From the NCBI RefSeq assembly GCF_003334385.1, contig NZ_QOWN01000008.1: 64,000 nucleotides of DNA; one strand, written 5' to 3'. Below the pieces are notes generated by a model, which saw nothing but the letters and a program-made list of their open reading frames with translations, was not told the DNA's origin and did not search any database. The stretch comes from Escherichia coli. GTDB lineage: Bacteria > Pseudomonadota > Gammaproteobacteria > Enterobacterales > Enterobacteriaceae. The position numbers and the translations under genes were made by a program. Shown one piece after another: positions 33,964-34,877 of this stretch (within the stretch, counting starts at the first letter, position 1; every line of letters begins with the position of its first letter).

Positions 33964-34877
33964 ATATTATCACTTACTGGCGGCTCATACTGAGCTGGTT
34001 AATGCTGTGCACACACAAACAAGCAATTCCATTTGTAATGTGCCTCCCTGGCAGTTTCATCCGGAACCCGGACGAAAGTAAAAATGCATATGAGTTGCAC
34101 TAAAAAAGCGACTCACATTGTTCCGTTATAATGCCTGAAGTAGATCACAGAATATATCTTCAGGGATCGCATATCTATTAAGTTACTCACTCTTTTCTAT
34201 TTATGACATGCGCGTGTTTGTATAAATGTAAATGTGAGTCCTTGTTCCACTCTCGTGCAGCATCGCTGGTCATACGCGAACACGTACCAACAGCAATGGT
34301 GAGGCGGCATCAAGAGCAGGGATCCGTCATTTATCCGAGCATTTTACCCCAAAAACCTTTTATTTATAAGGGTCATTGCGAATTATCTGATGCAAAGTTA
34401 TGTTAGGCAAAGTAATCTTCTATTATTAATAAGCACATCAAAACCTTTTTGAATATTAAATAATAATTAATTAGCATCATCCTCATTCATTAATTCCGCT
34501 TAACAATAGTTTCACACCTTGCCCCCATTGCGACACCTCGGAAATCATCACGCAGTTAAACTCTCCGTAATGAGGAAATATCATCATCGCGTTTCATTAG
34601 TGAATTCTTAAATGAGGCATTTTCACACTATTATCTTACAGATAAAAAAACCAGACCTACAATTAAGAATCAGAACAATTCACTATATAACATTGCATGT
34701 AAAGCATATACACCTCATTATTTTGTCATTATTAAGTTATTAACAGCACAATCGAGCCTTCCCCTCTGGCAAAATCTTATTCTGCAGACCTTCAAAACAC
34801 CGTCCTGGGGGAGTACATTGTTCTAAGCTGACTTCCACGGCAGGGAGTGGCGATAACAGCAAAAAAGGTCAAGATTC

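Follow-up and report, generated by a model that had tools for sequence, protein, structure and literature searches.

The long lrhA-alaA intergenic region of Escherichia coli is very probably a composite divergent regulatory region with a leader targeted by small RNAs

Introduction

The divergent genes lrhA and alaA of Escherichia coli are separated by almost 1 kb of DNA, and the question raised by this locus is what so long a gap contains, and whether it encodes a small RNA or a small protein in addition to the signals of the two flanking genes. In the 64,000-nt stretch of E. coli DNA analyzed here (contig NZ_QOWN01000008.1 of assembly GCF_003334385.1; hereafter the window), the minus strand carries the coding sequence of lrhA (33025..33963) and the plus strand that of alaA (34878..36095), leaving a gap of exactly 914 bp at 33964..34877. 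The names of both genes are confirmed by the annotations of K-12 MG1655 and ETEC1720. In K-12 MG1655 the two genes are spaced by 919 bp without any annotated feature between them, and the sole annotated feature inside the gap in the ETEC1720 record is an inserted IS1.

Published work already characterizes the region as a long regulatory spacer with multiple inputs and a 371-nt leader that is targeted by small RNAs (sRNAs). By Shimada et al. (2014), the "920 bp-long lrhA-alaA" spacer is singled out as exceptionally long together with csgD-csgB and nanC-fimB; these long spacers gather many regulators, and peaks of the RpoD holoenzyme are located in lrhA-alaA. A first-pass annotation of the window, made from the sequence, had described the gap as AT-rich and rich in A/T tracts, as is typical of curved, H-NS-bound DNA, had proposed that it holds the lrhA promoter with a long leader as well as the alaA promoter, and had suggested that it could additionally encode an unannotated small RNA or small protein.

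Results

Composition and Conservation of the Gap

The GC content of the gap is 38.6% compared to 51.4% for the whole window, and it drops to 23.5% at 34420-34500 and to 25.6% at 34620-34740, while A/T runs of at least 4 nt occur at 15.3 per kb in the gap and at 9.5 per kb in the window (about 1.6-fold). The long AT-rich gap of 0.9 kb was thus found as first described.

H-NS prefers AT-rich DNA with A/T tracts, and such a segment could be H-NS-coated, silenced or horizontally acquired, serving mainly nucleoid-protein silencing and not specific regulation. Besides the overall composition and the local GC content of 23-26%, this explanation would be compatible with the increased expression of lrhA or its ortholog pigU upon insertions in the gap, which may mean that a repressive structure is lost: pigU expression rises in Serratia when transposons insert into the orthologous pigU-alaA gap, and an earlier report, as cited in the Serratia paper, describes overexpression of lrhA by a transposon insertion in the alaA-lrhA gap of E. 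coli. However, the segment is not foreign. The gap was found in all 5426 of the 5426 complete E. coli genomes, at an identity of 90-99.8% (at least 95% in all but six), and across it the window differs from K-12 by one 5-bp deletion and two substitutions only. One genome per species with LrhA was also collected, giving 80 Enterobacteriaceae loci, and in 78 of these alaA was located divergently upstream of lrhA, with a spacer of 764-1140 bp, mostly 900-1010 bp. Since both the divergent order and the spacer length are shared by 78 species, the arrangement is ancient, and the length of the gap is more than chance. A patchy, strain-specific distribution of the gap was not seen among the 5426 E. 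coli genomes and 78 species.

The gap further contains no mobile-element remnants or notable repeats. The repeats found in it were limited to a direct repeat of 15 nt in two copies, a single 12-nt inverted repeat and a weak tandem array of 11 nt, and an origin from a mobile element, REP or tandem repeats was rejected. In the table excerpt from Shimada et al. (2014), this spacer has no HNS entry, whereas neighboring rows have one. Together with the conserved blocks and the two conserved promoters described below, which point to a specific function, these observations make silencing by nucleoid proteins or horizontal acquisition an unlikely main explanation of the region, and specific divergent regulation is the reading that we follow. 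H-NS itself may or may not bind the AT-rich DNA of the gap, for which a literature search returned no occupancy data.

The divergent arrangement and the length are kept in the 78 species, while most of the sequence is not. In the alignment of these species, high conservation was confined to the last ~80-100 nt of the lrhA leader, 34344-34393, ~34452-34516 and the last ~100 nt before alaA, whereas low values were obtained for the distal lrhA leader (0.15-0.45) and for 34517-34770 (0.14-0.58). The peaks coincide exactly with the functional blocks proposed in the following.

The lrhA Leader and Its sRNA Sites

The 5' UTR of lrhA is 371 nt long (Melamed et al., 2023). In the primer SM079 used for the lrhA-lacZ fusion, the lrhA part opens with ATAAATGACGGATCCCTGCT, corresponding to the window from 34334 read downward, 371 nt from the AUG, and the leader therefore covers 33964..34334 on the minus strand, in agreement with the long lrhA leader that had been proposed to lie within the gap. 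An older database entry gives a short lrhA 5' UTR, and no transcription start site (TSS) was seen there by Bilusic et al. (2014). The same authors found that an Hfq-co-precipitated "ig-lrhA-alaA" RNA gave bands of 150 and 350 nt and assigned it to the ~1.5-kb lrhA mRNA, which was raised in an hfq mutant (Bilusic et al., 2014). [quoted passage not shown] The pairing of UhpU with lrhA has been proven by the compensatory uhpU-M1/lrhA-M1 pair that restores repression (Melamed et al., 2023), and the interaction has been traced within Escherichia in a 2025 PNAS paper (PMC12704781).

We placed the UhpU site and candidate sites of the other sRNAs on the leader. Immediately upstream of lrhA, the motif AAGUGA (-12..-7; 33970..33975, minus strand) resembles a Shine-Dalgarno (SD) sequence and is the presumed ribosome-binding site; in 76 of the 78 species AGTGA occurs in the 150 nt that precede lrhA, and it hardly varies in the alignment. 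A comparison of the lrhA-M1 gBlock with the wild type showed a C to G change at -16 (window 33979), inside GCCGCCAGU (-21..-13; 33976..33984, minus strand), which places the core of the published UhpU pairing just upstream of AAGUGA. Since the M1 change lies beside this SD-like motif, UhpU acts next to the presumed ribosome-binding site; any pairing of UhpU beyond the GCCGCCAGU core is putative in its extent. The site is apparently limited to Escherichia and close relatives, with CCAGT in 11/78 and CCTGT in 23/78 species, consistent with the tracing of the interaction in PMC12704781.

Two further candidate sites were placed in the proximal leader. The motif GCACAGCAUU (-47..-38; 34001..34010, minus strand) contains CACAGCA, the exact complement of UGCUGUG at nt 62-68 of RprA and nt 45-51 of McaS, and CACAGC is kept in 61 of the 78 species, so GCACAGCAUU is a candidate pairing site of RprA and McaS. 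Similarly, CCAGGGA in CCAGGGAGG (-88..-80; 34043..34051, minus strand) is exactly complementary to ArcZ nt 68-74, which belong to the processed 3' part of this sRNA, making CCAGGGAGG a putative ArcZ site; this motif is kept only in Escherichia and some Citrobacter and is exact in 4/78 species. The best duplex energies of ArcZ, RprA, McaS and UhpU with the leader, calculated using ViennaRNA duplexfold with full-length and windowed sequences, were not better than those with dinucleotide-shuffled leaders, a method that lacks power and does not contradict the experiments. As a consequence of these scans, the coordinates of the ArcZ and RprA/McaS sites were placed by 7-nt complementarity and conservation only.

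The leader is predicted to be moderately structured (fold z-score -1.98). A hairpin UUUCGUCCGG-GUU-CCGGAUGAAA (-114..-92; 34055..34077, minus strand) appeared in the minimum free energy (MFE) fold as well as in the centroid fold, with CCAGGGAGG directly 3' of it and GCACAGCAUU further on. In a comparison of 17 sequences from Escherichia, Citrobacter and Salmonella, both partners are changed in four of its eight pairs, and 83% of the cells pair, as opposed to 31-55% with slid partners. The support for this hairpin comes only from this subset of genera, as no consensus structure emerged when RNAalifold was applied to sequences of 35 genera over the 160 leader nucleotides proximal to lrhA. Further upstream, the distal ~230-270 nt of the leader keep their length and not their sequence.

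Independent or Leader-Derived Small RNAs

The suggestion that the gap additionally encodes an sRNA as an independent gene did not hold. A scan against Rfam 15 (E≤10, 32300-35300) returned sub-threshold chance matches only, none of them credible in the gap, no terminator-like site was detected in the gap on either strand, and promoter-like sites were not in excess (3 found against 3.1 expected). Nor was an unannotated sRNA otherwise apparent, as the only RNA reported from the gap, the Hfq-bound 150/350-nt species, belongs to the lrhA mRNA.

Besides acting in cis, the lrhA leader might be processed to stable RNAs (about 150 and 350 nt) that are bound by Hfq and sequester sRNAs such as McaS in trans, as a decoy or sponge; such RNAs would in effect be sRNAs derived from a 5' UTR. 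The two bands were indeed co-precipitated with Hfq from the leader region, while the coding part was not enriched, and McaS combines the most leader chimeras with a lack of lrhA-lacZ repression, leading the authors to suggest possible inhibition of McaS (Melamed et al., 2023). In addition, 61 of 78 species retain the CACAGCA motif, to which the seed of McaS and RprA is complementary. On the other hand, the 150/350-nt fragments could hardly be detected in total RNA and may be intermediates of decay after cleavage triggered by sRNAs, the leader showed neither an internal terminator nor a processing signal, the distal leader is unconserved, and a trans effect of the leader on other targets of the sRNAs is hypothetical. 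We therefore regard stable trans-acting leader RNAs as doubtful, and the more specific proposal that leader fragments titrate McaS, and perhaps RprA and ArcZ, as slightly more doubtful still. If true, competition for sRNAs would tie the control of LrhA to the networks of csgD, flhDC and rpoS. In the reading that we prefer, the leader acts in cis, as a part of the lrhA mRNA.

Candidate Small Proteins

A frame for a 67-aa Cys/His-rich protein exists at 34203..34406 on the plus strand, where it spans the TSS and promoter of lrhA in antisense direction. As the first-pass annotation had stated, it has no ribosome-binding site: the bases preceding its ATG, TCTATTTATG, contain no SD sequence. A 5-bp GTTAT indel (see below) gives it a different C-terminus in about 96% of E. 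coli. As a gene, the frame was rejected due to two to three stops in two other Escherichia lineages, four to eight stops in Citrobacter, Salmonella and Intestinirhabdus, and its location where conservation within the gap is lowest (0.15-0.45).

A second frame, of 28 aa, lies as a possible upstream open reading frame (ORF) within the lrhA leader (34060..33974, minus strand). In two other Escherichia lineages this frame is unbroken and has the same sequence, and its stop is located 10 nt before the lrhA AUG, a layout that could couple translation. However, its identity within Escherichia reflects only the identity of the DNA, its AUG is preceded by GGGUUCCGG without an SD sequence, and in Citrobacter, Salmonella and Intestinirhabdus the ATG is replaced by GTG or GCx and the frame is interrupted by in-frame stops or frameshifts. 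No other ORF of the gap is intact beyond Escherichia either: all 16 ORFs of at least 20 aa are broken by stops or frameshifts outside this genus. Hence, although both frames exist, the antisense position of the 67-aa frame to the lrhA promoter, the altered C-terminus in most E. coli and the 2-8 stops in every relative examined, together with the decay of the 28-aa frame, make it highly improbable that either of them is an unannotated small protein, and the suggestion of a small protein in the gap was not supported.

The lrhA Promoter and Shared Upstream DNA

Upstream of the published start at 34334, we identified the lrhA core promoter (34341..34369, minus strand), consisting of a -35 hexamer TTATAA (34369..34364), a 17-nt spacer and a -10 hexamer TAAAAT (34346..34341). 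Among the Enterobacteriaceae sequences compared, TTATAA was found in 64/79 and TAAGAT or TAAAAT in 58/79, and the spacer was 17 nt in 78/79 while its sequence varied. The position fits the published +1, and the promoter is of the sigma-70 type. The lrhA promoter is thus located within the gap, as anticipated, and the leaders predicted from it in other genera are 334-587 nt long (median 397 nt). The lrhA promoter listed by Shimada et al. (2014), CTGCCA-16-TATGAT, was not found in our sequence by eye.

Between the two promoters lie ~420 bp of shared upstream DNA (34370-34790; ~31% GC) with one conserved block; the features in it are given without strand. Closest to the lrhA promoter, the box TGCGAATTATCT (34377..34388), at -43..-54 from the lrhA TSS, is kept in most genera and is a candidate site for an activator or repressor. 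Further upstream, the conserved AT-rich block ATATTAAATAATAATTAATTA ... TTCATTAAT..CTTAACAATAGTTTCACA (34452..34516), at -118..-182 from the lrhA TSS, reaches conservation values of 0.6-0.8 across the 78 species compared to 0.2-0.4 for its flanks, and it is followed by a poorly conserved, very AT-rich inter-promoter spacer (34517..34770), which includes the segment of 25.6% GC at 34620-34740. Promoter-like matches at 34635-34663 and 34723-34752 were unconserved and occurred at chance frequency.

For this gap, ChIP signals have been reported for OmpR and for Lrp, the latter with direct activation of lrhA, as well as weak SELEX peaks of the RpoH and RpoE holoenzymes. The upstream protein-binding sites would lie in 34370-34790, with any assignment of these proteins to individual blocks being putative.

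Among natural variants of the shared region, the window carries a single GTTAT at 34397..34401, a 5-bp deletion allele, in place of GTTATGTTAT in most E. coli, and this is the sole indel of the gap compared to K-12. In the comparison of this site, an identity of 90-95%, which the two-copy form should give, was obtained for 5211 of the 5426 E. coli genomes, and an identity of at least 95% for about 137; the two-copy form was found in E. albertii and Citrobacter too. The one-copy allele is rare and shifts the promoter-proximal box relative to the upstream block by half a helical turn. Insertion sequence elements also recur in the gap, with IS1 in ETEC1720 and an IS5 at -137 in the lrhA-alaA gap of a Keio strain, in which lrhA expression was changed; in SCPM-O-B-12142, an IS1-bounded deletion removes lrhA.

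The alaA Promoter and a Hairpin at the Predicted 5' End

At the opposite end of the gap, conservation points to an alaA core promoter at 34791..34819 on the plus strand, with a predicted -35 hexamer TTCAAA (34791-34796), a 17-nt spacer of variable sequence and a -10 hexamer TACATT (34814-34819). TTCAAA was found in 73/79 and TACATT in 72/79 of the sequences, and the 17-nt spacer was kept in 79/79, which bears out the expectation that the alaA promoter lies within the gap. The promoter would place the alaA TSS near 34826 and give a 5' UTR of ~52 nt in the window, and of 46-53 nt across sequences.

Another alaA promoter, TTAAGA-17-TATAAC, was proposed by pattern by Shimada et al. (2014). We found this sequence at 34663-34691, but it is unconserved and of a kind expected at chance frequency, and it was rejected as the main alaA promoter; because it has been proposed there, a second, longer alaA transcript is possible.

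The predicted alaA mRNA would open with a hairpin at 34827..34851 (plus strand), with the strands GCU-G-ACUUCC and GGGAGU-GGC enclosing the loop ACGGCA. It starts within 1-2 nt of the predicted 5' end and was predicted by the MFE and centroid folds alike. The 6-nt loop and the inner stem are invariant across genera; in the outer stem, one strongly covarying pair is AU in 49, GC in 14 and GU in 11 sequences, and another switches between U-G and U-A. In total, 88% of the cells of the comparison pair compared to 34-62% for slid partners, while two of the eight pairs are the same throughout, and in most sequences, including that of E. coli, one outer pair does not form. The hairpin is single-copy, and a 45-nt query was matched at at least 99% identity in 5418 of the 5426 E. 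coli genomes. It has no Rfam match, and a literature search combining alaA with GcvB, and alaA/yfbQ with Lrp and promoter, returned nothing relevant on the alaA promoter, 5' UTR or hairpin. The regulation of alaA by Lrp is reportedly the subject of work by Kim et al. from 2010.

Discussion

We conclude that the gap between lrhA and alaA is very probably a composite divergent regulatory region, by which it is wholly accounted for. About 40% of it is lrhA leader, followed by the lrhA core promoter, the ~420 bp of shared upstream DNA and the alaA promoter. In this arrangement, the Hfq-bound lrhA leader serves as a hub of post-transcriptional control for sRNAs, and sRNA control of lrhA relieves the repression of flhDC by LrhA and feeds back on rprA and rpoS.

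Such a hub resembles the leaders of rpoS, csgD and flhDC, which like that of lrhA are 5' UTRs of several hundred nt, bound by Hfq, on which several sRNAs converge near the ribosome-binding site, and lrhA likewise resides in an unusually long AT-rich intergenic region with many transcription factor inputs. RprA, ArcZ and McaS also act on rpoS, csgD and flhD. There are differences, however: RprA and ArcZ activate rpoS, whereas lrhA is repressed by all three of its validated sRNAs, and, in contrast to the rpoS, csgD and flhDC leaders, the sequence of the lrhA leader is conserved only over the last ~100 nt.

The pigU, hexA and pecT regions of Serratia, Pectobacterium, Dickeya and Photorhabdus provide a second comparison. 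These genes are orthologs of lrhA with the same divergent order relative to alaA, expression of the regulator is raised by insertions in the gap, and the orthologous mRNAs are reported to be controlled by ArcZ. The four genera were absent from the 80 retrieved loci, and the likeness therefore comes from arrangement and literature.

The alaA hairpin is comparable to the 5' stabilizing stem-loops of the ompA leader type, as it is likewise located at a 5' end, here a predicted one, and may be kept by compensatory or wobble changes. Unlike in pure end protection, which would not need it, the loop ACGGCA and the inner stem are invariant. The hairpin may thus be an end-protecting stem-loop, a binding site for a factor, or an operator in the DNA that directly follows the start; in the latter case the element may function as a DNA inverted repeat (CTTCC-N6-GGAAG) rather than as an RNA structure. 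Together with the rare GTTAT allele, it is one of two modest leads from the gap.

[quoted passage not shown] Since nearly all control of lrhA is exerted in the gap, an accurate map of its leader, sRNA sites, promoters and conserved upstream blocks matters for the interpretation of natural variants such as the IS insertions and the 5-bp deletion.

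Predicted hairpins in the alaA and lrhA leaders

Sequence comparison identified a hairpin on the plus strand at the predicted 5′ end of the alaA mRNA (34827-34851). Among 79 Enterobacteriaceae sequences, neither its loop, ACGGCA, nor its inner stem, CUUCC/GG(G/A)AG, showed any variation, and the outer stem displayed covariation. The hairpin occurs once per E. coli genome; it matched no Rfam family, and a literature search on it found no publication. It may function as an RNA element, or alternatively as a DNA operator at about +5 to +23.

A covarying hairpin was also identified in the lrhA leader on the minus strand (34055-34077; -114 to -92 relative to the lrhA AUG), where compensatory changes preserve pairing in Escherichia, Citrobacter and Salmonella, while Enterobacter and more distant genera carry other sequence in its place. 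Directly 3′ of this hairpin lies CCAGGGAGG, which is complementary to the sRNA ArcZ. In the lrhA upstream regions of the retrieved loci L003-L082, the predicted leader was long in all genera examined (334-587 nt, median 397), and its distal two-thirds had almost no sequence in common between genera. It is the length of the predicted leader that is kept and not its sequence.

Variation upstream of lrhA

The strain studied here carries a 5-bp deletion allele with a single GTTAT at 34397-34401 (-63 to -67 from the lrhA TSS). In its place, 5211 of the 5426 E. coli genomes have GTTATGTTAT, a form also present in E. albertii and Citrobacter, and only approximately 137 of the 5426 share the deletion, which shifts helical phasing between conserved blocks upstream of lrhA. 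Expression of lrhA differs between strains (PMC12968389), and the GTTAT deletion may contribute to these reported differences.

A second AT-rich gap of approximately 630 bp (about 32400-33024; GC 0.34-0.44) separates nuoA from the lrhA 3′ end and is the upstream region of the nuo operon; RpoD, RpoH and RpoF holoenzyme peaks are placed in it by Shimada's SELEX papers.

Insertion sequences occurred repeatedly in the lrhA leader and the lrhA-alaA gap across strains. ETEC1720 carries an IS1 approximately 220 bp ahead of the lrhA start codon (positions 2724-3421 of locus L002, NZ_CP122859.1), and an IS5 was reported at position -137 of lrhA in the K-12 Keio dacrA strain (PMC12054083). In SCPM-O-B-12142 (positions 2101-3949 of locus L087, NZ_CP144928.1) an IS1 and elaD fragments replace lrhA before alaA, indicating that an IS1-bounded deletion removed lrhA. 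This recurrence is reminiscent of the IS hot spot that lies upstream of flhDC and probably reflects selection on motility.
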